Positions 1-13,116 of a stretch of 38,245 bases of DNA are shown here, piece after piece. Numbering within the stretch: position 1 is the stretch's first letter; each line of letters begins with the position of its first letter. Both the position numbers and the translations under genes were made by a program. Source of the DNA: a virus (taxonomy: Duplodnaviria; Heunggongvirae; Uroviricota; Caudoviricetes); IMG/VR virus record IMGVR_UViG_3300000517_000001; one strand, written 5' to 3'. The notes beneath the pieces were generated by a model, which saw nothing but the letters and a program-made list of their open reading frames with translations, was not told the DNA's origin and ran no database searches.

Positions 1-741
1 TTGCATCCAAGGGCACATCCAAACTTTAAGCCCAATCTTACGAACATTGTAAGAAAACATATAGTCTTCAGATAGGTAGCGACGAGTTTCTGGATCAATA
101 ATAGTATCAAAGAATGCAGTGATTTCTCGTGTACCGTCAAAGTGTTCAGTACGAGCATGATCTGGCTTATAGCTTAATTCGGGGAATGCTTTAGCATACT
201 TATCAAACACCGAACGCTTGATCATCATAAACCCAGTACCGCCTTCACGGATTTCTACAGGTTCATCAAGCTTAAACGACTTAATGTTTTTTGCAGGATT
301 AAAGACAAAGTCGCCAACAAAATGTTCGAGCTGAAAAGGATTATCTTCACCATAGCCTTGATTAGCTGCAGCCTTTACCTTTTCCCAAGCAATCGTCTTC
401 TTAGGATAAGGACCAGTAATAACGTCATAATCATTTTCCTCATCACAGAGATGAAGAAGCGCAAGGACATCTTTGTAGTTAAAACCAATATCAGAATCGA
501 TAAACATCAAGTGTGTAAAACCCGAACGAAGGAATTCATCAACACAATAGTTACGAGCGCGAGTAATTAGACTCTCATTAAAAAGATAATAGAATCGTAC
601 TTCAATACCATGCTGAGCACAGACCATCGCAAGATCATTTGTTGCTTTGGTATACATGCCGGCACATTGTCCGCCGTACATTGGTGTAGCAATAAAGAGC
701 TTCTTTTTTCGTAGCTCTTCTACATTTAATTCAATTTTCAT
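1..741 (-). CDS. GT-A fold glycosyltransferase-like protein (3' end beyond window; missing from ORF track)
   Basis: Manual translation from ATG at 741 (TAATG overlap with the upstream stop) is open to the window edge: MKIELNVEELRKKKLFIATPMYGGQCAG...SLITRARN...THLMFIDSDIGF...GTGFMMIKRSVF...YLSEDYMF. It has a DxD motif (FIDSD) and the GT2-like SEDY motif. Confidence 0.75.
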   Translation of the reverse strand, partial: MKIELNVEELRKKKLFIATPMYGGQCAGMYTKATNDLAMVCAQHGIEVRFYYLFNESLITRARNYCVDEFLRSGFTHLMFIDSDIGFNYKDVLALLHLCDEENDYDVITGPYPKKTIAWEKVKAAANQGYGEDNPFQLEHFVGDFVFNPAKNIKSFKLDEPVEIREGGTGFMMIKRSVFDKYAKAFPELSYKPDHARTEHFDGTREITAFFDTIIDPETRRYLSEDYMFSYNVRKIGLKVWMCPWMQ

Positions 742-1028
742 TATACATTATTCTCCATATCATGTACATAAAGCTGCAGTATAGCATAATGCAATACTTT
801 CATCAAATCTTTACGTGCTTCTGCTGGACCACCCTTTTTACCATATCTATTTGAATACTTATCGACATTACCCATACAAAAACCAGTCCCATGGCCCCGG
901 TCAATAATCACTTCGGTTGATTGAATTTTACCTGTTGCGTAATGTTGATCGTAAGTTTTATCAATATAGTCTCGAAGTTCATCAATGTAAATATCTTCAT
1001 TGAATTTATAATCAATATAGTCTTTCAT
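741..1028 (-). CDS. DUF3310 / T7 gp1.7-like (SaV-like) putative nucleotide kinase
   Basis: QHYATGKIQSTEVI...FCMGNVDKYSNRYGKK...KDLMKVLHYA fits the HY..GN..KY..R...K..DL.K...Y pattern. The start is probably ATG 1028 (MKDYI), which has a GGAGAG SD, rather than 1106. Confidence 0.65.
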   Translation of the reverse strand: MKDYIDYKFNEDIYIDELRDYIDKTYDQHYATGKIQSTEVIIDRGHGTGFCMGNVDKYSNRYGKKGGPAEARKDLMKVLHYAILQLYVHDMENNV

Positions 1029-1044
1029 TATCTCTCCACTTGTT

Positions 1045-2235
1045 TCAAGAAAAAAATCCTTCCAATGTATTACTACGTTCATTATATTCAGCAGTTTGAT
1101 TACCATTATACTGCATTATAAAGTCAGTGTCAACCATTACTAACTCATTATTCAAATATTTTTTCACCTCTGTGGCCATATCAGTGGCTGTTTGGACTGG
1201 AACGTTTTGACAAATATGATTCACTGTTGTAGTGTTTGCTTTTACAAGCTCAAAATCATCAGGCATACCCATAATTGTAAGAGCCTCTCGGAAATCAATA
1301 TAACGATCTTCTGTAGGATGTGTAAGCATAAAGGGATACCTTCCCACAAATGCACCAATCTTGTCCTTTGGAACAATGGTGTGTCTTCTTGTTATTTCAT
1401 TTCCTGCTTTAAGTTTTTCATATCGACGTTCACAGCGTTCAACTTCTTCATTATAACCTTTTTCTTTCATCCATTCAGCTACTTCAAGGTAATTACGATG
1501 CTGTTCAATATAAGCCAACGCATCAGAATTACGAGCTGAACGAGGTGGTACCATCTCTGAGAATTCCCTATGAGAAATGCCCTCGTGAATATTTTCGAGA
1601 ATGTACCTATAGTAGGGATCGTCACGAGATGGTACATTTTTATTTATCAACTTTCTCATTGAATTTGAGGAAATATTTGAAATTAATTCCTCAATCGGTA
1701 TATAAGGTGTTTTGTAATAAGAAAGAAGTGGTGTCTTACTATCTTTCCAAAAGAAGTAAAATGCTCTTTCACGAATTTGTGGATTGCCATGTAATTCACT
1801 TTTGGTTCTATACACAGACATCGTATAACCATGTTCAGAACCAATACGCTTCATTTCATTTAGGATTGGTTCTCCCATTTTACCGGCAAGTCCTGGAGCA
1901 TTCTCACCCCATAACACACGTGGCTTCAATGATTTAAGAACATAAGCTGTAGTCTTGATAAGCCAGTCATTAGTAATGTTGTCAGAACCAGCATCTTTTG
2001 ATAGACGAGAAAGACCTGCACATGGGCATGTCGAGCAAATAACATCAACATAACCCAAATCCGGAACACCTTTACCTAATTGATAATACGGAACGTCTCC
2101 ATAATATTCTACAAGATGTTGATCATTGTCTTGAAAATCTGAATAGGACAGCAAATACTCAGGCTTACTACCAAAAGCTTTTTGCTGTCCTAAAACAAGA
2201 CCACCGATTAAGGGAACGATGGCTGCATGATTCAT
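1045..2235 (-). CDS. C5-cytosine DNA methyltransferase-fold protein with atypical motif I
   Basis: Motif IV (STCPCAGLS), VI (ENAPGL), VIII (QIRERAFY), IX (RYIDFREALTIMGMPDDF) and X (ICQNVPV) are present. Motif I reads IVPLIGG instead of FxGxGG. Confidence 0.8.
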   Translation of the reverse strand: MNHAAIVPLIGGLVLGQQKAFGSKPEYLLSYSDFQDNDQHLVEYYGDVPYYQLGKGVPDLGYVDVICSTCPCAGLSRLSKDAGSDNITNDWLIKTTAYVLKSLKPRVLWGENAPGLAGKMGEPILNEMKRIGSEHGYTMSVYRTKSELHGNPQIRERAFYFFWKDSKTPLLSYYKTPYIPIEELISNISSNSMRKLINKNVPSRDDPYYRYILENIHEGISHREFSEMVPPRSARNSDALAYIEQHRNYLEVAEWMKEKGYNEEVERCERRYEKLKAGNEITRRHTIVPKDKIGAFVGRYPFMLTHPTEDRYIDFREALTIMGMPDDFELVKANTTTVNHICQNVPVQTATDMATEVKKYLNNELVMVDTDFIMQYNGNQTAEYNERSNTLEGFFS

Positions 2236-3242
2236 GTCATAAACCTTAGTGCTGTTTTCATTGCCGAGTTAATAGCCATGTCCATATCCAAATAAGCATA
2301 AAGACCACATCTTCCAATGAAAGTAGTATTCTCAGTAGGAATAGAACGATACTTAGCATAAAGATCACGATTTACACCATCTTTATCTTTCACTGGATAA
2401 TAACGTTCCATATCATTATCGCGGTAATCGCATGGCTCTTCGTATGTAAGAACAGTCATTTTTTCGTTAATGCCATGTCCTGGAATATTTTTCCATTCAG
2501 TAACTCTTGTATAAGGACCGGTATGAGTGAAGTTAACAGTAGTAGTTGGTAGTACTTTAGCCATTGGCAGCGTCACATTATGGAATCGAATAGAACGGTA
2601 TGGCAGTTCACCATACTTTTTACCATGATACACATCAATTGGCATTGAGTTGAATACGTGGTTATAATGGGATTCCATATCCTTTTTGAATTGAACCTCG
2701 AGCATCACTTTAATATTCGGATGATCGAGCATATTCTCTACAAGGTGCGTATATCCACCAAATGGCATTGCTTGAAAGTTATCATTCGGAAAATAATACT
2801 CGTTGTCATCATCGCGAATAGGAACTCGATTTACAATATCAGGATTGAGTTCGTCAAGACTCATACCCCACATTTTTTTAGTGTATGGCCTAAAGAAAAT
2901 ATCGAGAACATTCTCTTCACCAACGATCTCTTTAGTTTCGCGATTTACAGGCAAAGTGACATAACGGCCATCTTTAAGCTGAGCCTTTACTTTATGCTTA
3001 TAAGGAAGCCACGCAGTAAAACGAGAAAGAAAGTCAACTACCTCCTGGTTATTTGTATGAAAAAGATGAGGGCCATACTGGTGAATTCGAATACCGTTTT
3101 CATCTAGATAGTCATATGCATTACCAGCAACATGATCACGACGATCAATCACATGCACATTTCTTCCATTGTCAGCGAGCATACGAGCAATTGTGGCGCC
3201 AGAAAATCCAGCGCCTATTACGAGAATATCATTTTCTGGCAT
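2232..3242 (-). CDS. glf: UDP-galactopyranose mutase
   Basis: FAD motif VIGAGFSG, plus AGNAYD, HQYGPHLFHT, YTKKMWG, RVPIR, YYFPNDNFQAMP, TRVTEWK, RYYP and GRCGLYAYLDMD. Confidence 0.93.
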   Translation of the reverse strand: MPENDILVIGAGFSGATIARMLADNGRNVHVIDRRDHVAGNAYDYLDENGIRIHQYGPHLFHTNNQEVVDFLSRFTAWLPYKHKVKAQLKDGRYVTLPVNRETKEIVGEENVLDIFFRPYTKKMWGMSLDELNPDIVNRVPIRDDDNEYYFPNDNFQAMPFGGYTHLVENMLDHPNIKVMLEVQFKKDMESHYNHVFNSMPIDVYHGKKYGELPYRSIRFHNVTLPMAKVLPTTTVNFTHTGPYTRVTEWKNIPGHGINEKMTVLTYEEPCDYRDNDMERYYPVKDKDGVNRDLYAKYRSIPTENTTFIGRCGLYAYLDMDMAINSAMKTALRFMT

Positions 3243-4335
3243 TGAGAATAGCCTCCAATTCTTTTTGTGTCACATTCTTATCAAGAGGATGATTATCATA
3301 CAAGCAATCATGCTGATCTTTTGCTGTTTGAATGAGTTGTTCAAGTGTCATTTCTTCTACTTGTGCGGCAGTAAGACCAACATATGCATCACCATATACC
3401 TTACCTTCAGCGTCATCACAAATAAGAATAGAACCAACATCTGCAACCTGAAGTGGACGAGCTCTCCACCAACCAGAACCAGCGTGGTGGTAGCCAGGCA
3501 TCAAGCAACCCCATTGCTTTTCATAAACACGACACATGTCATATTCTTTAAGACGCTCGCTTTTGTAGTCATCATTTTTGCCAGCATTCTTTTGGCCGAA
3601 GTAATCAATCTCCCATTTCCAATCATCATTCTGATCTTTCAACCAACGACGAGTACGGCGATGGAGAAGTGATGCAAAGTTCCACTTACGCTGTTTTTCT
3701 TCAGGAGATACAGTCTCAGTGAAAAGCTTTACAGTACCATCTTCAAAGTTGTTATCAGGTCTACGATTCAAATGATATGGGTTTGGATTAAAGGTAAAGA
3801 GTTTATCCTTTTGCCAGCCAAGATCCATAAGATCGAGATCACCACCAGCAAATGCAGAAACAAGAAGACGATTGTTTCGATTTTCTACAATAGTACATCC
3901 ATCAATATAGTCTTGTGCATGTGCTTTAATAGTCTCTTCGCTTTCAGATCCGCCGTAATGGTCAAAAAGATACTTACGAAAAGGCTTGTTGTCTTCAATA
4001 ATAGACTCTTTGTACTTAACAATACTATCAATCATGCCTTTGAATTGCCAGTCGTCAAATGCAAGAATACAGTCAGGACGCTGAGCAATAGTCCAAAGAC
4101 CAGACCAAATACGAGCTGCAAATGATTGAAGGTTATGAATGTATACAATGACTTCATCATAACCAGAAAGGTCTTCGCCAATTGTTACAGGACGTTGATC
4201 TACTTCCCAGCCCATATCTTCAAGACATCGAATAAGACCATAATGACTCGGAACAACCTGAAGTTGCTGACGAAGATAAAAGTCGCGTTGTGTTTGTGCT
4301 TGGTTAATACCAGTAATTAGAATTCGTTTACTCAT
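3229..4335 (-). CDS. T4 beta-glucosyltransferase-like GT-B DNA glycosyltransferase
   Basis: N-terminal VVPSHYGL...EDMGWEVDQ...GYDEVIV and C-terminal RARPLQVADVGSILICD...QHDCL parallel the T4 Bgt sequence as I recall it (VPSSE...EMGLNVDI...DYDRLIV; LRVWETMASDAVMLID...QHDIL). The start is probably ATG 4335 (MSKRIL), with a GGAG SD and an ATGA overlap with galE. Confidence 0.62.
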   Translation of the reverse strand: MSKRILITGINQAQTQRDFYLRQQLQVVPSHYGLIRCLEDMGWEVDQRPVTIGEDLSGYDEVIVYIHNLQSFAARIWSGLWTIAQRPDCILAFDDWQFKGMIDSIVKYKESIIEDNKPFRKYLFDHYGGSESEETIKAHAQDYIDGCTIVENRNNRLLVSAFAGGDLDLMDLGWQKDKLFTFNPNPYHLNRRPDNNFEDGTVKLFTETVSPEEKQRKWNFASLLHRRTRRWLKDQNDDWKWEIDYFGQKNAGKNDDYKSERLKEYDMCRVYEKQWGCLMPGYHHAGSGWWRARPLQVADVGSILICDDAEGKVYGDAYVGLTAAQVEEMTLEQLIQTAKDQHDCLYDNHPLDKNVTQKELEAILNARK

Positions 4336-5198
4336 TTTTTCTCCATAGAATATGCGCTGCGACACATATCGCCTAACGTATGATTAATACTAACATATTT
4401 GCTTAAATTGTCAACTACTAACTTTGCAGGATCGCCTGACCTTCTTTCACCAAAGTTCACATCAAAGTCAATTCCAGTTACTCGCTTCATTGTATTTACA
4501 ACCTCAAGGTTAGAATATCCTGCACCTGATCCAATGCACTCGTATGGTGTGTTGGACGGAGTATTTATACAACTTAAAAGTGACTCAGCAAGATCAACCA
4601 CATGGACATAATCACGAATGCAGGTTCCATCAGGAGTATCGTAGTCATCACCGAAGATTGTTATAGAGTCTCTTTGACCAGCAGCAGTGAGAGCAGCAAT
4701 ATGCATTAAATGTGAAGGATCACAAATTTGTCTAAACTCTCCGTTGTTCCCTGCTACGTTAAAGAAACGAAAGATTGTATAGTCATTTGCAATTTGCTTT
4801 ACTGCTTCTTCGGCAATAATTTTCGACTTGGCATACGGAGAGATTGGATCAAATGCACCACCAGTAGAAGCAAAAACGAAGTGACCATATTTTACATTTT
4901 GCAGGAGATTGATTGTTCCTTGTACGTTCGTCTCATAATAGCTATTTGGTTTCTCAACAGATTCAGCAACAGAGATAAGAGCTGCACAATGGATTACCAC
5001 ATCATAATACTGATCTATCCAAAAGATTTCATCTTTTTTACGGATATCAATATTATAGAATTTTGTGATATATTTGTAGATGCTGTTTTTAGAGTGTTCA
5101 ATATCTAGGCCATGAACATTATGACCAGCTTCATATGCAGCCTTTACAATATGAGAGCCAATATAACCACATGCACCTGTTATGAGGATTTTAGCCAT
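4332..5198 (-). CDS. galE: UDP-glucose 4-epimerase-like extended SDR
   Basis: ITGACGYIGSH NAD motif, HCAALISVAESVEKPNSYYETNVQGT, catalytic YAKSK, FRFFNVAG, IFGDDYDTPDGTCIRDYVHVVDLA and RRSGDP. Confidence 0.88.
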   Translation of the reverse strand: MAKILITGACGYIGSHIVKAAYEAGHNVHGLDIEHSKNSIYKYITKFYNIDIRKKDEIFWIDQYYDVVIHCAALISVAESVEKPNSYYETNVQGTINLLQNVKYGHFVFASTGGAFDPISPYAKSKIIAEEAVKQIANDYTIFRFFNVAGNNGEFRQICDPSHLMHIAALTAAGQRDSITIFGDDYDTPDGTCIRDYVHVVDLAESLLSCINTPSNTPYECIGSGAGYSNLEVVNTMKRVTGIDFDVNFGERRSGDPAKLVVDNLSKYVSINHTLGDMCRSAYSMEKK

Positions 5199-5542
5199 TC
5201 TTTACATTCCTTTAATTTGTTCATTTCAAATTCCTTATCATTCAGCTGTCTATTCAGCGGAGATGGGTGTGGCATCATAAAATGCTCGATCCCAGCTGTA
5301 TTTAGTGTTTTTGAAACGAAGCCACCGAGAGCTATTACTTTGTCATAACCCTCGGTGAAAGAATTTAAAATGTTGTAGTCTATCATATCAGACTTGTATG
5401 GACCTGGTGTATGAATAATATTTGTGAATGAAAAGTGTTGAGCATTAAAATAATCTACCCATCGATTTAGACGTTTGATTGTTCCACTTACTCGCTTGGG
5501 ATTACCCTGAGATGGGTTGATCCCCACAATCAATAAATTCAT
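5180..5542 (-). CDS. Miniature uracil-DNA glycosylase superfamily protein (MUG/SMUG-like motifs)
   Basis: Motif A-like IVGINPS, central FTN, VIALG and motif B PHPSPLN. The start is probably ATG 5542, which has a GGAG SD. Confidence 0.7.
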   Translation of the reverse strand: MNLLIVGINPSQGNPKRVSGTIKRLNRWVDYFNAQHFSFTNIIHTPGPYKSDMIDYNILNSFTEGYDKVIALGGFVSKTLNTAGIEHFMMPHPSPLNRQLNDKEFEMNKLKECKEWLKSS

Positions 5543-5984
5543 ATTCAACTCCAGCTTCAAGAAACATGGTTTTAGACAATTTAAATGACTCAGCCCACTG
5601 TTCAGGATAGTTTTTCTTTGGCATGACTACTCGCCTGATACCAACTTGAATTACACCCTTTGCACATTCAGAGCAACAAGGAAGACCCCAAATATAAAGG
5701 GTAGAGCCATCGAGAGAAACACCGTTATATGTAGCATTATATATTGCATTCATTTCGGCGTGAACAATTAATTTATATTTTTTCTCTTTATATTCGTACC
5801 TTACTTGCCGATCAATAATACCACGCGGAAATCCATTATAGCCTTGGGAAAGAACTTGACCTTTATTTCCAATTGCCACTGCACCAATCTTCGAAGAAGG
5901 ATCTTTAGACCAGCTCGATACTTCTCGAGCCAGTCCAAGATAACGAATATCCCATTTATTTGACAAGATGAAAGTGCCTTTCAT
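5502..5984 (-). CDS. cd: dCMP deaminase
   Basis: SKDPSSKIGAV, GYNGFPRG, zinc motifs HAEMNAI and PCCSECAK. The start is uncertain (ATG 5984 or TTG 5966). Confidence 0.9.
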   Translation of the reverse strand: MKGTFILSNKWDIRYLGLAREVSSWSKDPSSKIGAVAIGNKGQVLSQGYNGFPRGIIDRQVRYEYKEKKYKLIVHAEMNAIYNATYNGVSLDGSTLYIWGLPCCSECAKGVIQVGIRRVVMPKKNYPEQWAESFKLSKTMFLEAGVEYEFIDCGDQPISG

Positions 5985-6621
5985 ACACGTGGAGTGATCC
6001 TGCACTCCAGTAAATATCACCCTTTTGATATCCAGTCTCATCTGCTACCATACCGAGAACATAATCCTGCCATGCTCGATCGTTTTTGTAACCAAAAATT
6101 GCATCATTGCTGCGCATTTGAACGATAGCATTGACTTGCCCATCACGCTGGAGATACTGTACAGTGTTAGTACACATAAAGTCAGATCGACCATTCTTAT
6201 TATAATCAACCTGCATTTCAGGACGAGTATAGATCATGATAGCACGACGAGTATCTGGATCATTTTTGAGTGCTTCGACGCACTTTGAATATTGATTACC
6301 ATTTTCAGGTGAAAAAATACACCAACCGTAGTTAGAGTTAATAAAGCCATCTTTATCAGCAACGGTCATCCAAATCTGTGGTGGATTAGTTTCTTGTTTC
6401 ACACCACCTGGCATATCATATACATTCAAAGAGCAAGACTCATACCATGCGATTTCACGTTCTACATAGTCCCAGTTTACTTTACCAAAGATTGCTGGTT
6501 CATCTGCAATGAAGGTACCACCCATAATTTCAAGTGTATTCACACCGGTTTTGTCTGTAACATATTCATTGTTACAAAGCTTGCGAATAAACTCTTTACG
6601 AATATCGCTTACTCTCATCAT
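5956..6621 (-). CDS. gp42: dCMP hydroxymethylase (thymidylate synthase fold, T4 gp42-like)
   Basis: EREIAWY, INSNYGW, DTRRAIMIY, catalytic DFMCTN, MRSNDAIFGYKND and GSLHVYERHF. The residue 8 after the RSxD aspartate is Asp (the cytosine-selective type), not the Asn of ThyA. Confidence 0.88.
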   Translation of the reverse strand: MMRVSDIRKEFIRKLCNNEYVTDKTGVNTLEIMGGTFIADEPAIFGKVNWDYVEREIAWYESCSLNVYDMPGGVKQETNPPQIWMTVADKDGFINSNYGWCIFSPENGNQYSKCVEALKNDPDTRRAIMIYTRPEMQVDYNKNGRSDFMCTNTVQYLQRDGQVNAIVQMRSNDAIFGYKNDRAWQDYVLGMVADETGYQKGDIYWSAGSLHVYERHFHLVK

Positions 6622-8767: not shown

Positions 8768-9187
8768 TTATTCTAAAATTTTTGGTAGATCACCATGATT
8801 ATCATCATGACGAGGTGGCTGCCATCCAGAAGGCTTAATCATATCAGGCATACCCCAAGGGTTTGGACGGCCAGGTTTAACACCAACATCTTTACTCATA
8901 TTAGCCCGAAGAATTTCATCCCATGCTTTATGAGCATCAACACCCATCACATCAAGTGTACCAATAGCAAAGACACAAATATCGATAAGACCGTCTACTA
9001 CTTCTTCAGAGTTTTGTTGCACGTTTGCTGCTGAGATAATCTCACCAAGTTCTTCATACATCATAGTAATACGGAAGCTCAAATACTTACGCATCAACTC
9101 TTTATTGTCTTTGTTCTTTTCGAACCATTCATGTACACCAAACTTTTGGTGCATTTCATTAATATCTTGAGCCCAGTCATTACTCAT
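8768..9187 (-). CDS. MazG-like nucleoside triphosphate pyrophosphohydrolase (PRA-PH/DR2231 type)
   Basis: EELGE...EEVVDGLID acidic motif, WDEILRANMSK and IKPSGWQPP. Confidence 0.8.
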   Translation of the reverse strand: MSNDWAQDINEMHQKFGVHEWFEKNKDNKELMRKYLSFRITMMYEELGEIISAANVQQNSEEVVDGLIDICVFAIGTLDVMGVDAHKAWDEILRANMSKDVGVKPGRPNPWGMPDMIKPSGWQPPRHDDNHGDLPKILE

Positions 9188-9603
9188 TTTTCATTTTCCC
9201 TTTCATGAACTAATTTACGAAGACCACTGCTTGAAAAGCGATGATCACGTTTGTTGAAGTAAAGTTGAATGCCACGTTTACGACATACATCTTTGCCAGT
9301 AAAATCTTTGTCTTTATACTCTACACCGAGTATCCTTACATTTATATCATACATTTGAAGAATGTCAACTAAATCTTCTTCAGTTACATAACAAATAATC
9401 TCATCAACATACTTTACTGCGGCGAGCTGTGTATACCTCTCGACCAATGTTTGAACTGGTGCGTTCTTTTCAGGACGATCAATTGAAGGATCAACCTGAA
9501 GACCAGCAATAAGATAGTCACATTGTTGCTTTGATTCTCTAAGCATACTTATATGGCCTGCGTGAAGTAGATCAAATGTGCTACACGTAAATCCTACTTT
9601 CAT
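9184..9603 (-). CDS. Cytidylyltransferase (glycerol-3-phosphate cytidylyltransferase, TagD-like)
   Basis: STFDLLHAGH (HxGH), LIAGLQVDP, ERYTQL, VDEI and FSSSGLR. Confidence 0.85.
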   Translation of the reverse strand: MKVGFTCSTFDLLHAGHISMLRESKQQCDYLIAGLQVDPSIDRPEKNAPVQTLVERYTQLAAVKYVDEIICYVTEEDLVDILQMYDINVRILGVEYKDKDFTGKDVCRKRGIQLYFNKRDHRFSSSGLRKLVHERENEK

Positions 9604-11318
9604 TATACCTCCATCATACTAAAGTTTTTCACTTTCTTAAATTTAATAACATTCTCGAACTTGTCATAAAGCTGGTCACCTTTATGACTAATAATAAAAA
9701 TGTTACTATCTGCTGTGAGCTCGTTAATGATCTTCAAAAACTCTTCAGTGCCAGCATTATCTAGAGACGAGTCCATAATCTCGTCCATAATTAAAAGGTT
9801 AGTACTTACCGAGTTTCTGAGTTTCGAGACTGCGCGCCAGGTAAAAAGTAGCGCGAGATCGATGCGAAGCTTCTCACCTTCGGAGAACGAAGCATAAGAA
9901 AAAGCATCACGAAAGCGGCTCTTAATTGTTTCATTAAATCCCTCATCAAGTTGAAAGTCTACAAAGAAATCCATAGACGCTAAATATTTATTGATCAGTT
10001 TGTTCATCACCGGAACATATTGCTTAATGATACGAGTTTTAATGCCACCATCTTTGAGCATAGATCCAAGAACACTTAGAATTTCCTTATCATTTAAAAG
10101 CTGTTCTTGTTTTGTTTGATATGCTACAAGATCTTTTTCGAGCTGTTGGATCTTTGATGTATCTACTGCTTCGACTTCCTTCTCAGCCTCCATCAATTCC
10201 TTTTTAATACCGCCCAAAGTATTCTTTGTGAGTTTGATATTAGCTCTACATTCAGATGCATGAAGATGTAGCTTCGATATATCATCTTCAATTTCACTAA
10301 TCTCAATAAGTCTTGTTTCTTTTTCTAGAGCTTTAGATGCGAGTTTCTCTCTTGCATTTTTGATTTTGTTAATCTCACTTTTGTGTTGATCAACTGTATC
10401 TTGCTTAAATTCAACTTCGATTCCTTGCTTACATGTTGGACAGTCGTCATGTTGTTCGAAGAATTTGATTTCTTTTGAGAGTCGATTGAATTTTGTTTTG
10501 AGCTCATTGTCGATTTCCTGTATCTCTGAAAGCTTTTTCTTAACATCACCTTTGTCTTGAATCGATTTTACAAACTCATCCATGTGAGATTCGATTTCAT
10601 CGATTTTTGACTGCTCTGACTCAATATATTCAAGATGTTCTTTTACTTTTTCTTTAATCCTTTTGACTTCATCCTCTTTCATAGTACGAATAGAGTCGTT
10701 ATGATCTTTTGCAGACTGAATTCGATCTTTTAAAAGGTCTACATGATATTTGAGTTCTTGTATTTCGGACTTATTATCAGATACCTTTTCTTTAAGAAGA
10801 ACATTCATTGTCGTAAAAATTTGAATATCGAGAAGATCTTCGATAATTTCACGGCGTTGGCCAGCAGGAAGTTGCATAAATGGCACAAATGTAGAAGACC
10901 CAAGGACTACGATTTGTCCAAAGGATTTCATATTCATCTTTAAGATATTGTCTTCAAGATACGCTTGATAGTCCCTTGCTGCAGCATCTTGATTTAAAAG
11001 TTCACCATCTCTCCAAATCTCAAAAAGATTTGGCTTCATACCACGAACGATTTCGTAGTTTTTACCACCAGAGCTAAAGGCTACTTTTACCTTTAGATGT
11101 TTTTGATTAATAGAGTTCATCAACTGTGGTTTATTGATCTTACGAAATGGTTTACCGTACAAGGCAAAACAAATGGCATCAAGCATTGTAGATTTGCCTG
11201 CACCATTTTCACCAACTACAAGTGTTGATTTACTCTTATCGAGATCGATTCGAGTCCATTGATTACCTGTAGAAAGAATGTTTTTATATTCAACGTATTT
11301 GAAGTGTAATGCACTCAT
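9603..11318 (-). CDS. gp46: Recombination endonuclease ATPase subunit (Rad50/SbcC-like)
   Basis: Walker A GENGAGKST, zinc hook CPTC, signature FSEGEK, Walker B LIMDE and ISH. Confidence 0.95.
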   Translation of the reverse strand: MSALHFKYVEYKNILSTGNQWTRIDLDKSKSTLVVGENGAGKSTMLDAICFALYGKPFRKINKPQLMNSINQKHLKVKVAFSSGGKNYEIVRGMKPNLFEIWRDGELLNQDAAARDYQAYLEDNILKMNMKSFGQIVVLGSSTFVPFMQLPAGQRREIIEDLLDIQIFTTMNVLLKEKVSDNKSEIQELKYHVDLLKDRIQSAKDHNDSIRTMKEDEVKRIKEKVKEHLEYIESEQSKIDEIESHMDEFVKSIQDKGDVKKKLSEIQEIDNELKTKFNRLSKEIKFFEQHDDCPTCKQGIEVEFKQDTVDQHKSEINKIKNAREKLASKALEKETRLIEISEIEDDISKLHLHASECRANIKLTKNTLGGIKKELMEAEKEVEAVDTSKIQQLEKDLVAYQTKQEQLLNDKEILSVLGSMLKDGGIKTRIIKQYVPVMNKLINKYLASMDFFVDFQLDEGFNETIKSRFRDAFSYASFSEGEKLRIDLALLFTWRAVSKLRNSVSTNLLIMDEIMDSSLDNAGTEEFLKIINELTADSNIFIISHKGDQLYDKFENVIKFKKVKNFSMMEV

Positions 11319-12382
11319 ATACTCATAGCCTCACTATAGAGATCAGAAATAGCTTTCTTTAATTTGCTCTTATCAACACCAGTTTCAAGGTTGTCAATGT
11401 ATTGATTTAGAATCGTATGTGTATCCTGTGCTTCATCAATGAGTTCATCCTCATCAACAACATCAAGGTTCATATGATCTTCAACTACCTTGACATCAGC
11501 AGGAGCAGCAGACTGAATACGGTCAAGGAAAAGATCAAAGATGTATGGGTTATTCTTTGCTTTGATTATAACCTTTACATGTGTATTTGTCAACTGTTCT
11601 GTTTCGAGTTCGGCAATATCTTCTACAGTCGCATCAGTATCATCATAGAATACTTTATGAAACATTTTATATGGGTTTGGAATAAACTCAAGCTCTCGTG
11701 TTTCAGTATCAAGAATATGAAAGCCACGTTTACCATCATAGTCAGACCAATTCATTTCATATGGTGCACCAAGGTACTTAATATTATCGTACTCAGATGG
11801 ATGATGAAAGTGACCAGAATATACTGCATCAAACTTGGTAAATTCTTTTTTATCAAAGCCATGATCACAAAGCTGGCCACGCATCATCTCAAAACCCTGA
11901 ATTTCAAAGTGGCCCATACAAATTTGTGCATCAGTATTTGAAATAGCTTCTACACATACCTCATAATTATCCTTAGCAATCCAAGGAACCATCAAAATCT
12001 TTGTAGAACCGAGTTGCAATTCAACAGGATCATTCTCATAAATGTACAAATTATCATATGTTGAATTACCATAGATTTGTGTTACACCATTTAGACTGTT
12101 GGTATTTTTGTAGTAAGTATCGTGATTACCAAGAACTAAATGCATTTCAATACCGTTGTCAAACAAAGGCTGGATCATATAATCAGTCATAGCCTTTGCT
12201 GTAACAAAGTTAATGAACTTACGGCGATCAATCAAATCGCCGAGGTGTAAAACAGTCTTAATATCATTTTCAATCAAGTATGGGAAAAATACTTCATCAT
12301 AAAATTTTCGAAAATACTCCGTAAAGGCTGCATTGTCGTTTCTTGCACCCCAGTGAGTATCATTAATAATTGCAACTTTCAT
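11315..12382 (-). CDS. gp47: Recombination endonuclease nuclease subunit (Mre11/SbcD-like)
   Basis: Metallophosphoesterase motifs DTHWG, GDLIDRRK, GNHD and SGHFH. Confidence 0.95.
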   Translation of the reverse strand: MKVAIINDTHWGARNDNAAFTEYFRKFYDEVFFPYLIENDIKTVLHLGDLIDRRKFINFVTAKAMTDYMIQPLFDNGIEMHLVLGNHDTYYKNTNSLNGVTQIYGNSTYDNLYIYENDPVELQLGSTKILMVPWIAKDNYEVCVEAISNTDAQICMGHFEIQGFEMMRGQLCDHGFDKKEFTKFDAVYSGHFHHPSEYDNIKYLGAPYEMNWSDYDGKRGFHILDTETRELEFIPNPYKMFHKVFYDDTDATVEDIAELETEQLTNTHVKVIIKAKNNPYIFDLFLDRIQSAAPADVKVVEDHMNLDVVDEDELIDEAQDTHTILNQYIDNLETGVDKSKLKKAISDLYSEAMSI

Positions 12383-12537
12383 TTACGTTCATTCTCGTAT
12401 TGTCTTACTGCTTCTTGACATGCTTTACGAATATCATCAAGCGTTTTCACAAAGTGTTGTCTTTGCTCGTAGTGAACACTTTTGTTTGTTGCTTTATCAA
12501 TTAAGTCTTCGATAATGACTGGTAGTGGTTGTCTCAT
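12379..12537 (-). CDS. 52-aa hypothetical protein (below ORF-track cutoff)
   Basis: MRQPLPVIIEDLIDKATNKSVHYEQRQHFVKTLDDIRKACQEAVRQYENERK fills the gp55-gp47 gap exactly, with ATGA overlaps at both ends. Confidence 0.8.
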   Translation of the reverse strand: MRQPLPVIIEDLIDKATNKSVHYEQRQHFVKTLDDIRKACQEAVRQYENERK

Positions 12538-13097
12538 TTTTCATCATCCTCATAAAAGTTCTCAAGACCCTCTTTTTTCTTTTCTTTCTCTTTTTTCTTC
12601 TTATTCATAGAAGCTTCATAGTTTTCTACAAAGTCATTCATATAGTCGTTATTCAAATCAATGAATGCAGCATCACCATTATCACTTGTCTCTGATCCTG
12701 TCACTGCTGTGCCTGTAAGTACACTATTTTCAACAACCTTATGTTTAACATAAAGTTGCTTCTTTTCTTTTTGAATACGACGAATGAATGCAAAATAGAT
12801 TACTTGAGTAAAGTAAGCAAATGGATTCTTAGATTTTTCTGGATCAAAATTATGTACACACATCACAGCATTTTCAATGCCGTCTGAGATCATATCATCT
12901 CGATATGTGTAGTTAATAAAGTTTGGTTTATAAGAAAGTCGATTAGCAATATGATAGATACATTCTCCAATATAATTGGGAATACGTGGTAGTTCTTCAC
13001 CACTCTCCTCTGCTTCTCGACATGCATTTTTGTATTCAACCATCGCCTCGTAGAACTCGGCGTTATTGACATAATTCTTTTTTGCTCTTTTGGCCAT
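12534..13097 (-). CDS. gp55: Late-transcription sigma factor
   Basis: NYVNNAEFY, RIPNYIGEC, FINYTYRDDMISDGIEN and NPFAYFTQVIYFAFIRRIQKEKKQ. The start is probably ATG 13097 (AGGAG SD). Confidence 0.95.
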   Translation of the reverse strand: MAKRAKKNYVNNAEFYEAMVEYKNACREAEESGEELPRIPNYIGECIYHIANRLSYKPNFINYTYRDDMISDGIENAVMCVHNFDPEKSKNPFAYFTQVIYFAFIRRIQKEKKQLYVKHKVVENSVLTGTAVTGSETSDNGDAAFIDLNNDYMNDFVENYEASMNKKKKEKEKKKEGLENFYEDDEK

Positions 13098-13116
13098 AAT
13101 CACTCCTACCTATACG

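Follow-up and report, generated by a model that had tools for sequence, protein, structure and literature searches.

The subject of this report is P0001, a 396-residue protein with the fold of the DNA cytosine C5-methyltransferases (the DCM fold), which is encoded on the minus strand of a 38,245-nucleotide stretch of DNA from a virus of the class Caudoviricetes (IMG/VR record IMGVR_UViG_3300000517_000001), hereafter the window. Judging from its sequence, P0001 appears to be catalytically equipped, to have a rebuilt cofactor pocket and to serve as an accessory partner of a module that glycosylates 5-hydroxymethylcytosine (hmC). The reading we prefer, and to which we give a probability of about one half, is that P0001 is a clamp-tethered enzyme that works on replicating phage DNA and carries out a non-classical reaction, probably on hmC. 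The parts of the gene on which this rests are listed below, with the model enzymes M.HhaI and M.HaeIII (hereafter HhaI and HaeIII) and the phage cytosine C5-carboxymethyltransferase CmoX as points of reference.

1045..2235, minus strand: open reading frame (ORF) and translation of the DCM-fold protein P0001, 396 amino acids.
2200..2220, minus strand: motif I variant IVPLIGG, residues 6-12, with V7 at HhaI F18 and L9 at HhaI G20.
2140..2154, minus strand: end of strand beta-2, LLSYS, residues 28-32, placed by DSSP (strand 28-30, helix 32-45) and column statistics.
2008..2028, minus strand: motif IV CPCAGLS, residues 70-76, aligned to the PCQ of HhaI and HaeIII, with the catalytic Cys72 kept and Ala73 in place of HhaI Q82.
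1195..1215, minus strand: motif X variant ICQNVPV, residues 341-347, with Gln343 at HhaI N304 and CmoX R350.
1048..1071, minus strand: C-terminal tail NTLEGFFS, candidate epitope for binding to a sliding clamp of the T4 type (gp45).

The catalytic half of P0001 is recognisably that of a C5-methyltransferase (C5-MTase), and the profile and sequence matches by which it is recognised all start at about residues 58-64, leaving a motif I-III half that is not alignable by sequence. Pfam family PF00145 is matched with an E-value (E) of 7e-23 and 82 bits against a threshold of 22, over profile positions 59-324 only, the NCBIfam dcm model TIGR00675 reaches 52 bits against a cut-off of 100.65 in a match that begins at model position 58, and in searches of the PDB sequences, both by phmmer and by hmmsearch with the family profile, the matches begin at about residues 58-64. 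Neither phmmer nor hmmsearch, nor hhalign against E. coli Dcm, could align the first 60 residues with those of canonical enzymes. The register of motifs I to III was taken from the start of the structural alignment and from secondary structure. An AlphaFold2 model of P0001, built on a 23-sequence alignment, has a mean predicted local distance difference test score of 87.9, and C5-MTases were its only matches in Foldseek. VIA-align superimposes the model on HaeIII (1dct) with a Z of 25.4 and a root-mean-square deviation of 2.9 over 274 aligned residues, model residues 1-364 corresponding to HaeIII 1-324, and on HhaI with a Z of 25.0, the same residues corresponding to HhaI 12-325. These starting points (model residue 1 at HhaI 12 and HaeIII 1) place V7 at HhaI F18 and HaeIII F7, L9 at HhaI G20 and HaeIII G9, and G11-G12 at HhaI G22-G23. 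The C5-MTase fold, which a first-pass annotation made from the letters of the sequence had proposed, is confirmed by the model, with both of its domains.

All the motifs named in that annotation are present in the translation, namely IVPLIGG (6-12), CPCAGLS (70-76), GENAP (110-114), PQIRER (152-157), REALTIMGMPDDF (316-328) and ICQNVPV (341-347), and the P0001 start codon overlaps the stop codon of the preceding glf gene in a 4-nucleotide ATGA (2232-2235), in agreement with the translational coupling it had described. P0001 belongs to a very large family. A near-length homologue search with it yielded 2182 proteins, and when 1.84 billion cluster representatives were searched exhaustively with a profile there were 1687 matches with E below 1e-3, 368 of them below 1e-30; in a motif scan of the 150 best, nearly all those that are full-length had [IV]-P-L-[IV]-G-G, PC(A/S)GLS, ENAP, QxRxR and x-Q-N-V-P. 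Column statistics were drawn from 86 diverse representatives with 27-55% identity to P0001. Invariant in all 86 are L9, G11, G12, C72, E111, Q153, R155, R157 and Q343, with P8 and N344 each kept in 85; position 73 is Ala in 70 and Ser in 13 (one or the other in 83/86), and position 31 is aromatic in 79. The catalytic Pro-Cys, the Glu of EN and QxRxR, which had been described as intact, are so without exception, and the altered CQNV of motif X holds equally well. The description of motif I as degenerate stands as far as the variant itself is concerned and falls as regards degeneracy, since the variant is strictly conserved. With replacements and catalytic residues conserved side by side, the machinery for base flipping and attack on C6 and the altered environment of cofactor and channel are both under strong selection, and on these column statistics the altered signature is to be read as a conserved variant and not as decay.

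Four positions that form the cofactor pocket or the transfer channel in canonical enzymes are changed (F18 to V together with G20 to L; loss of the acid after beta-2; Q82 to A; N304 to Q). The canonical FxGxGG of motif I is not found in P0001, where Val stands for the Phe and Leu for the first of the Gly residues. The end of beta-2, where canonical enzymes have the ribose-binding Glu (HhaI E40, CmoX E47), reads LLSYS with no acidic residue, and across the 86 representatives columns 28-32 hold I/L/V, L/I, S/T, Y/F/W and S/D/P, with no conserved Asp or Glu. An acid in this role is near-universal in Rossmann-fold methyltransferases. Directly after the catalytic Cys72 comes Ala73, where canonical C5-MTases have Gln (HhaI Q82), and in motif X the HMMER alignment of cQNVPv to GNAVPV of HaeIII puts Gln343 at the canonical Asn (HhaI N304). 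The absence of a conserved acid at the end of beta-2 and the Ala or Ser in place of the motif IV Gln are additions to the changes listed earlier. By the published account, Q82 and N304 are conserved in all C5-MTases and line the channel for the transferred group, and the Q82A change lowers methylation markedly (PMC10666283); in CmoX, the Arg at the position of N304 (R350) touches the carboxymethyl group that is transferred (PMC12783734). The bulkier hydrophobic side chains found where adenosine and methionine would have been contacted (Leu for Gly, an aromatic residue for the acid) resemble, we infer, the filling of a site that is no longer used.

The surroundings of the gene are those of a T4-like myovirus, the window holding gp46/47, UvsW, UvsY, gp55, major head protein, scaffold, portal, sheath and terminase in a viral record of 40 kb that is 22% complete. 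Upstream of P0001, on the same strand, lie the genes of an hmC locus, from Glf to the MazG-like protein, and beyond them gp55.

2232..3242, minus strand: UDP-galactopyranose mutase (Glf), PF03275 E 1.8e-52.
3229..4365, minus strand: 378-residue protein in the slot of a DNA glycosyltransferase, phrog_14998, no Pfam match, its putative glycosyltransferase role being taken from position only.
4332..5198, minus strand: NAD-dependent sugar-nucleotide epimerase (GalE-like), PF01370 E 7.5e-37.
5180-5560, minus strand: ORF of 126 residues of the uracil-DNA glycosylase (UDG) superfamily, PF03167 E 4.6e-6, 27 bits against a cut-off of 24.3.
5502..6041, minus strand: dCMP deaminase, PF00383 E 4.3e-18, phrog_174 E 1.2e-42.
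5956..6621, minus strand: gp42-type dCMP hydroxymethylase, matching the T4 enzyme PDB 1b49 with E 3.6e-76, with Cys, RSND Asp and KND Asp kept.
8768..9187, minus strand: MazG-like nucleotide pyrophosphohydrolase, candidate dCTPase, phrog_671 E 5.9e-23.
9184-9603, minus strand: cytidylyl/adenylyltransferase-like protein of 139 residues, similar to RfaE domain II (E 1.8e-19), adjoining the MazG-like gene.
12534..13103, minus strand: gp55 late sigma factor, phrog_234 E 1.6e-63, with the tail EGLENFYEDDEK.

The gp42 homologue bears out the earlier description of the region as an hmC locus, and Asp at both the RSND and KND sites marks the enzyme as cytosine-specific. The identity of a 5-hydroxycytosine synthase, for which D169N is the signature (PMC13326640), was rejected for this homologue, whose RSND has the Asp. 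Together with the dCTPase candidate, it leads us to expect little unmodified cytosine in the DNA of this phage. The epimerase, the 378-residue protein and Glf suggest that the hmC is decorated with galactofuranose; in Rhizobium phage RL38J1 a Glf is used in making glycosylated 5-hydroxycytosine (PMC13326640). The UDG-like ORF, which sits between dCMP deaminase and epimerase, recurs in 28 of 225 related loci, and homologues of the 139-residue protein are also met inside some glycosyltransferase cassettes. On the downstream side a DUF3310 ORF (741-1106, minus strand) would, with its first ATG as the start, share 62 nucleotides with the 3' end of the P0001 gene; its profile matches, which include T7 gp1.7-type nucleotide kinase families, start only at about residue 30, and its true start is probably later.

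The linkage of the P0001 family to gp42-type enzymes and DNA glycosyltransferases extends to several phage lineages. In 80 IMG/VR loci with close homologues (52-62% identity) the gene order is o95, thymidylate synthase (TS) homologue, dCMP deaminase, in some the UDG-like ORF, a variable cassette, the DCM-like gene, in some DUF3310, and phrog_1574. The cassette consists of alternative DNA glycosyltransferases with sugar-nucleotide genes, and may hold the 378-residue protein with or without Glf and epimerase, homologues of the T4 alpha-glucosyltransferase (PF11440, E 1.6e-74), GT4-like proteins, or a nucleotidyltransferase-kinase fusion with another glycosyltransferase, so that known DNA glycosyltransferases fill in related loci the very slot that the 378-residue protein has in the window. 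Distant members (30-36% identity) have a glycosyltransferase, with or without an epimerase, directly upstream in most loci and in several backgrounds of gene order. Asp at the position of ThyA N177 was taken to denote a cytosine-specific TS homologue, and among 151 non-redundant family loci a TS homologue was present in the fetched flank of 76, of which 74 were of the Asp/Asp type and none had the ThyA Asn. Four records with no gp42-type TS in the flank were searched whole, giving an Asp-type homologue in two (of 139 kb and 389 kb) and none in the other two, whose completeness is 22% and 26%. A lack of linkage between homologues and hmC genes, which would have spoken for an ordinary methylase, is accordingly not the pattern seen.

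A tblastn search of a collection of 50,697 phage records found family members only in Pseudoalteromonas phage vB_Psh_XG4, in the S-TIM5 group of cyanophages and, partially, in Bacillus phage G, and a nucleotide search of the phage collection gave no match. In the cultured phage XG4 (PP712099.1, our locus L002) the order is TS, nucleotidyltransferase/kinase, glycosyltransferase, an ORF and the DCM-like gene. Cyanophage S-TIM61, of the S-TIM5 group, has a member with IIPLVGG and ICQNVP about 2.4 kb from a gene annotated as ThyA (L001:4769-5605), which reads ...RSNDMATGVPLD... with Asp at the ThyA-N177 position and is probably, on that residue, a dCMP-specific enzyme and not a thymidylate synthase. 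Two subtypes can be told apart within the T4-like lineage. Type 1, to which proteins with 49-62% identity to P0001 belong, accompanies all types of glycosyltransferase but one, and type 2 (31-34%), the N-terminus of which resembles that of the XG4 protein, goes with the GT_L078 type of glycosyltransferase in 15 of 16 loci, in which the flanking genes stay at 55-66% identity; the pair of GT_L078-type glycosyltransferase and type-2 protein is also found in XG4 and in other backgrounds.

The tail of P0001 points to where the enzyme would act. Ligands of the T4-type clamp gp45 (gp43, gp55 and gp33) have at their very C-terminus, behind a linker that varies, a short epitope of hydrophobic and acidic residues (PMC2988020). 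The gp45 gene is not in the window, and the window's own gp55, which served as an internal reference for this epitope, ends in EGLENFYEDDEK (GLENFY) where P0001 ends in NTLEGFFS (TLEGFF), the two being alike as expected of the gp45 ligands of one phage. The gp55 tails of other loci are GVEKFIEDEDE, GSLDKYFGEVTD or SLDNFKG, and there the DCM-like protein finishes with SLEAFL, GLEAFF or TLEIFF. A residue pattern of [LIVM][ED]x[FY] near the end is present in 72 of the 91 DCM-like proteins whose gene is followed by phrog_1574 and in 12 of the 60 others; it is lacking in the DCM-like proteins of XG4, S-TIM61 and the 'KKKYKVKSII' group, and type-2 proteins inside T4-like phages do have it (NLEEFF). 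Two divergent subtypes that share a tail only in T4-like phages are good sequence evidence for a tether to gp45, and such a tether would mean action on replicating phage DNA. Several cassette glycosyltransferases end in the same manner (DLEDFFT, ATLEGFF, IGLESFF, ASLEAFFI, SLESFFE), the loci being L013, L018, L044, L052, L075 and L078, and the tail is absent from the 378-residue and AGT-like cassette proteins. In this phage lineage DNA-modifying enzymes may thus be tethered to the clamp quite generally, and the T4 alpha-glucosyltransferase itself, in work attributed to Sommer and colleagues in 2004, is said to interact with gp45.

Taken together, these features lead to the following proposal. 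Held at gp45 by its tail, P0001 would act on newly replicated phage DNA, flip out a cytosine-type base and add Cys72 to C6 in the manner of a methylase, and would not perform ordinary methyl transfer from S-adenosylmethionine (SAM). The likeliest substrate would be 5-hmC, as the sole abundant cytosine species in such DNA; Ala73 would free space beside C5, and the invariant Gln343 and near-invariant Asn344 could provide polar contacts to the 5-CH2OH group. Overall, the side chain at C5 would be exchanged or removed by way of a 5-methylene intermediate, which would make the enzyme a natural counterpart of reactions known in vitro, where HhaI without SAM hydroxymethylates GCGC sites and an engineered M.SssI couples thiols to 5-hmCG (PMC7176277). 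In its most specific form, in which the family would be the first natural SAM-free DNA enzyme to use the covalent C5-MTase mechanism, riding on the clamp and converting hmC or stray cytosine to an undescribed C5-substituted cytosine via the 5-methylene, the proposal is tentative, and we regard it as possible and no better than that. As for the first-pass annotation, what it had seen of the fold, the catalytic residues and the two altered motifs stands, as do the coupling to glf and the setting among hmC genes, and on loss of SAM binding and on the reactions it proposed (editing of residual cytosine, activation of hmC or use of another cofactor) we can, as it did, only infer. The clamp-type tail, the pairing of subtypes with glycosyltransferase types and the accessory status of the gene go beyond that annotation.

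Several observations weigh against the preferred reading. When loci were gathered through the hydroxymethylase and not through the DCM-like gene, 25 spanned the interval from TS to phrog_1574, and the DCM-like gene was present in 19 and absent from six that are otherwise equivalent, so that hmC glycosylation as such does not need the enzyme. Cassettes without it (L247:3025-5824, L282, L235, L299) contain a homologue of myo-inositol-1-phosphate synthase (PF01658, E 2.5e-24), a weak match to 5-hydroxymethyldeoxyuridine DNA kinases (PF18723, E 6.8e-5) and a weak match to T4 beta-glucosyltransferase, which hints at a different route of hmC elaboration, and one four-gene cassette seems to exist in versions that have the gene and versions that lack it, to judge only from ORF lengths that match. 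The pairing with types of glycosyltransferase could reflect linkage in a swapped cassette and not function; the parsimony count over 82 loci, in which glycosyltransferase labels change 25 times on the tree of the DCM-like proteins and 34 times on that of phrog_1574, goes in the expected direction and is too weak to separate the two. In the pocket, the GG of motif I is retained (G11 and G12 in all 86 representatives) and the adenine-binding Asp after beta-3 (HhaI D60) is kept in 56 of the 86, P0001 itself having Gly, and a cofactor of the adenosine type is for these reasons still conceivable. Finally, a metagenomic member of 598 residues (P0224, with PLVGG and QNVP) is fused to a zf-CXXC domain (PF02008, E 6.6e-7). 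CXXC zinc fingers of other proteins bind unmodified CpG, and the fusion hints that unmodified cytosine is a substrate, at least there or in part of the family. It is the sole informative fusion domain, the extensions of the other long members (P0161, P0181 and P0182) having no Pfam match.

Such points bear first of all on the idea that P0001 is an ordinary SAM-dependent, sequence-specific 5-methylcytosine (5mC) methyltransferase with a divergent SAM half, which methylates residual cytosine in phage or host DNA. The protein passes the Pfam PF00145 threshold, has the full C5-MTase fold at a Z of 25 with every catalytic motif, and keeps the GG of motif I, the beta-3 Asp is kept in most members of the family, and one member has the CXXC fusion; motif I also varies in some enzymes that are active, that of Dnmt3 being FxGxxxG. 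However, four positions of the SAM site and transfer channel are replaced invariantly, the near-universal ribose-binding acid is missing, the protein falls below the curated dcm cut-off, and Q82A is a change reported to lower methylation markedly. The gp42 homologue and the dCTPase candidate should leave such an enzyme little cytosine, and its co-occurrence with cytosine-specific TS homologues in several lineages would not be expected of an unrelated methylase. We consider it rather unlikely, while giving it more weight than any other alternative.

Were unmodified cytosine the substrate, the enzyme might instead be a DNA-level hydroxymethylase or 'proofreader', tethered to the clamp, that turns misincorporated cytosine into 5-hmC with methylene-tetrahydrofolate or formaldehyde, for the glycosyltransferase to finish. 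Cytosine that is present only as rare errors would suit a scanner riding on the clamp, and the product would feed the adjacent glycosyltransferase; the polar Gln343 and Asn344 beside C5, the hydroxymethylation of GCGC by HhaI in vitro (PMC7176277) and a CXXC fusion that suggests an unmodified CpG target all fit. Yet the substitutions (Leu for Gly, an aromatic residue for the acid) fill the old cofactor site with more bulk, hardly what a folate would need, no feature for folate binding was identified, and a repair step indifferent to the sugar should not show the pairing between DCM-like subtype and glycosyltransferase type. This makes the proofreader an unlikely explanation.

More doubtful still is a weapon directed at the cytosine-containing DNA of host or competitor, in which the C6 adduct would lead to deamination or to persistent adducts, with sugar-hmC protecting the phage's own DNA and with the neighbouring UDG-like protein and nucleases completing the attack. 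The UDG-superfamily ORF (5180-5560) and gp46/47 in the same region, the CXXC fusion and the accessory distribution could be brought in its favour, and C5-MTases reportedly deaminate cytosine when SAM is absent (a finding ascribed to Shen, Rideout and Jones in 1992). Known deamination by methylases is, however, very slow, a gp45-type tail shared with DNA glycosyltransferases points to replicating phage DNA, and the tight pairing with glycosyltransferases is likewise against it, so that we hold this to be very improbable. The least probable of all is a non-catalytic protein that flips bases or binds hmC, for example as a clamp adaptor for tail-less glycosyltransferases or a restriction shield, since, although the putative glycosyltransferase of the window and the AGT-like ones lack the tail that DCM-like proteins of T4-like loci have (72/91) and the pocket is altered, the invariance of Cys72, Glu111, Arg155 and Arg157 across hundreds of clusters at 50% identity argues for covalent catalysis and the DCM-like gene is present even in cassettes in which the glycosyltransferase is itself tailed.

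Comparison with known systems helps to place the enzyme that we prefer to see in P0001. With HhaI, HaeIII and E. coli Dcm (PF00145) it has in common the two-domain fold, the motif IV Cys, the motif VI Glu, QxRxR of motif VIII and motif IX, and, as in other bacterial and phage C5-MTases, an insert for target recognition lies between motifs VIII and IX. The P0001 family differs from these canonical enzymes in having [IV]-P-L-[IV]-G-G for FxGxGG, PC-Ala for PC-Gln and Gln-Asn for the Asn-Ala/Ser of motif X, in lacking the acid after beta-2, in falling below the NCBIfam dcm cut-off, in its clamp-type C-terminal tail and in being restricted, as far as seen, to viruses with cytosine-specific TS homologues. 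CmoX (PDB 8YF3; PMC12783734) shares the DCM fold with P0001 at a Z of 22.5, and in it specificity for a group other than methyl is set at the position of HhaI N304 and a handle for hypermodification is created (PMC12783734). In CmoX the adenosine contacts F25, F48, E47 and D69 are kept, N304 is matched by an Arg and the motif reads SPPC, whereas in P0001 the contacts are replaced and Gln343 and TCPC are found instead. An enzyme of the CmoX type that uses carboxy-S-adenosylmethionine was rejected, as P0001 has neither the defining Arg nor the SPPC motif; no synthase for this cofactor was seen among the ORFs scanned in the window fragment.

The operon around P0001 is the same system as the hmC system of T4 (gp42, gp56, cd and the alpha- and beta-glucosyltransferases), with another sugar. 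We know of no DCM-fold component in the T-even phages. A gene of the C5-MTase family likewise stands beside DNA glycosyltransferases in the hypermodification clusters of the pathway that leads from 5mC through 5hmC to glycosyl-hmC by methyltransferase, TET dioxygenase and glycosyltransferase (PMC8256090, bioRxiv 10.1101/2023.12.21.572611). There, however, the methylase is canonical and hmC arises after replication through the dioxygenase, whereas at the P0001 locus hmC comes from gp42 before replication. A TET-based pathway was set aside here, with no Tet_JBP (PF12851) match in the 40-kb record, which is 22% complete, and with the hmC explained by the gp42 homologue. Closest in chemistry are the SAM-free reactions of C5-MTases described by the Klimasauskas laboratory, which also rely on addition of the Cys to C6 and in which the engineered variants change exactly Q82 and N304 (PMC7176277, PMC10666283). 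These are laboratory side reactions of SAM enzymes, and a natural enzyme dedicated to them was not found described in the literature searched; nor did we find a description of the P0001 family, which is not proof that none exists.

Within the best-studied DNA methyltransferase fold, the family forms a very large branch, confined to phages, in which the pocket for the methyl donor has been systematically rewritten and the machinery for attack on the base kept. Hypermodification of phage DNA has in the past been a source of new enzyme chemistry and of tools for epigenome sequencing. If the reading we prefer holds, the chemistry would be new, and SAM-free work at C5 would open a further enzymatic way to modified cytosines, provide a natural reagent with which 5-hmC could be derivatised sequence-specifically and be a cytosine counterpart of the kinase-based route of thymidine hypermodification; should P0001 be no more than a methylase, it illustrates the extent to which drift in the SAM site is tolerated by the fold. 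Cultured phages with family members (Pseudoalteromonas phage vB_Psh_XG4; cyanophage S-TIM5 and its relatives) make the question directly testable. The most practical experimental system is XG4, in whose unannotated record the whole module, from the gp42-like TS to the DCM-like gene, lies within about 6.5 kb. Two loci (L089 and L090, at about 10000-12400) seem, from the clustering of their ORFs, to have two DCM-like family genes in tandem.

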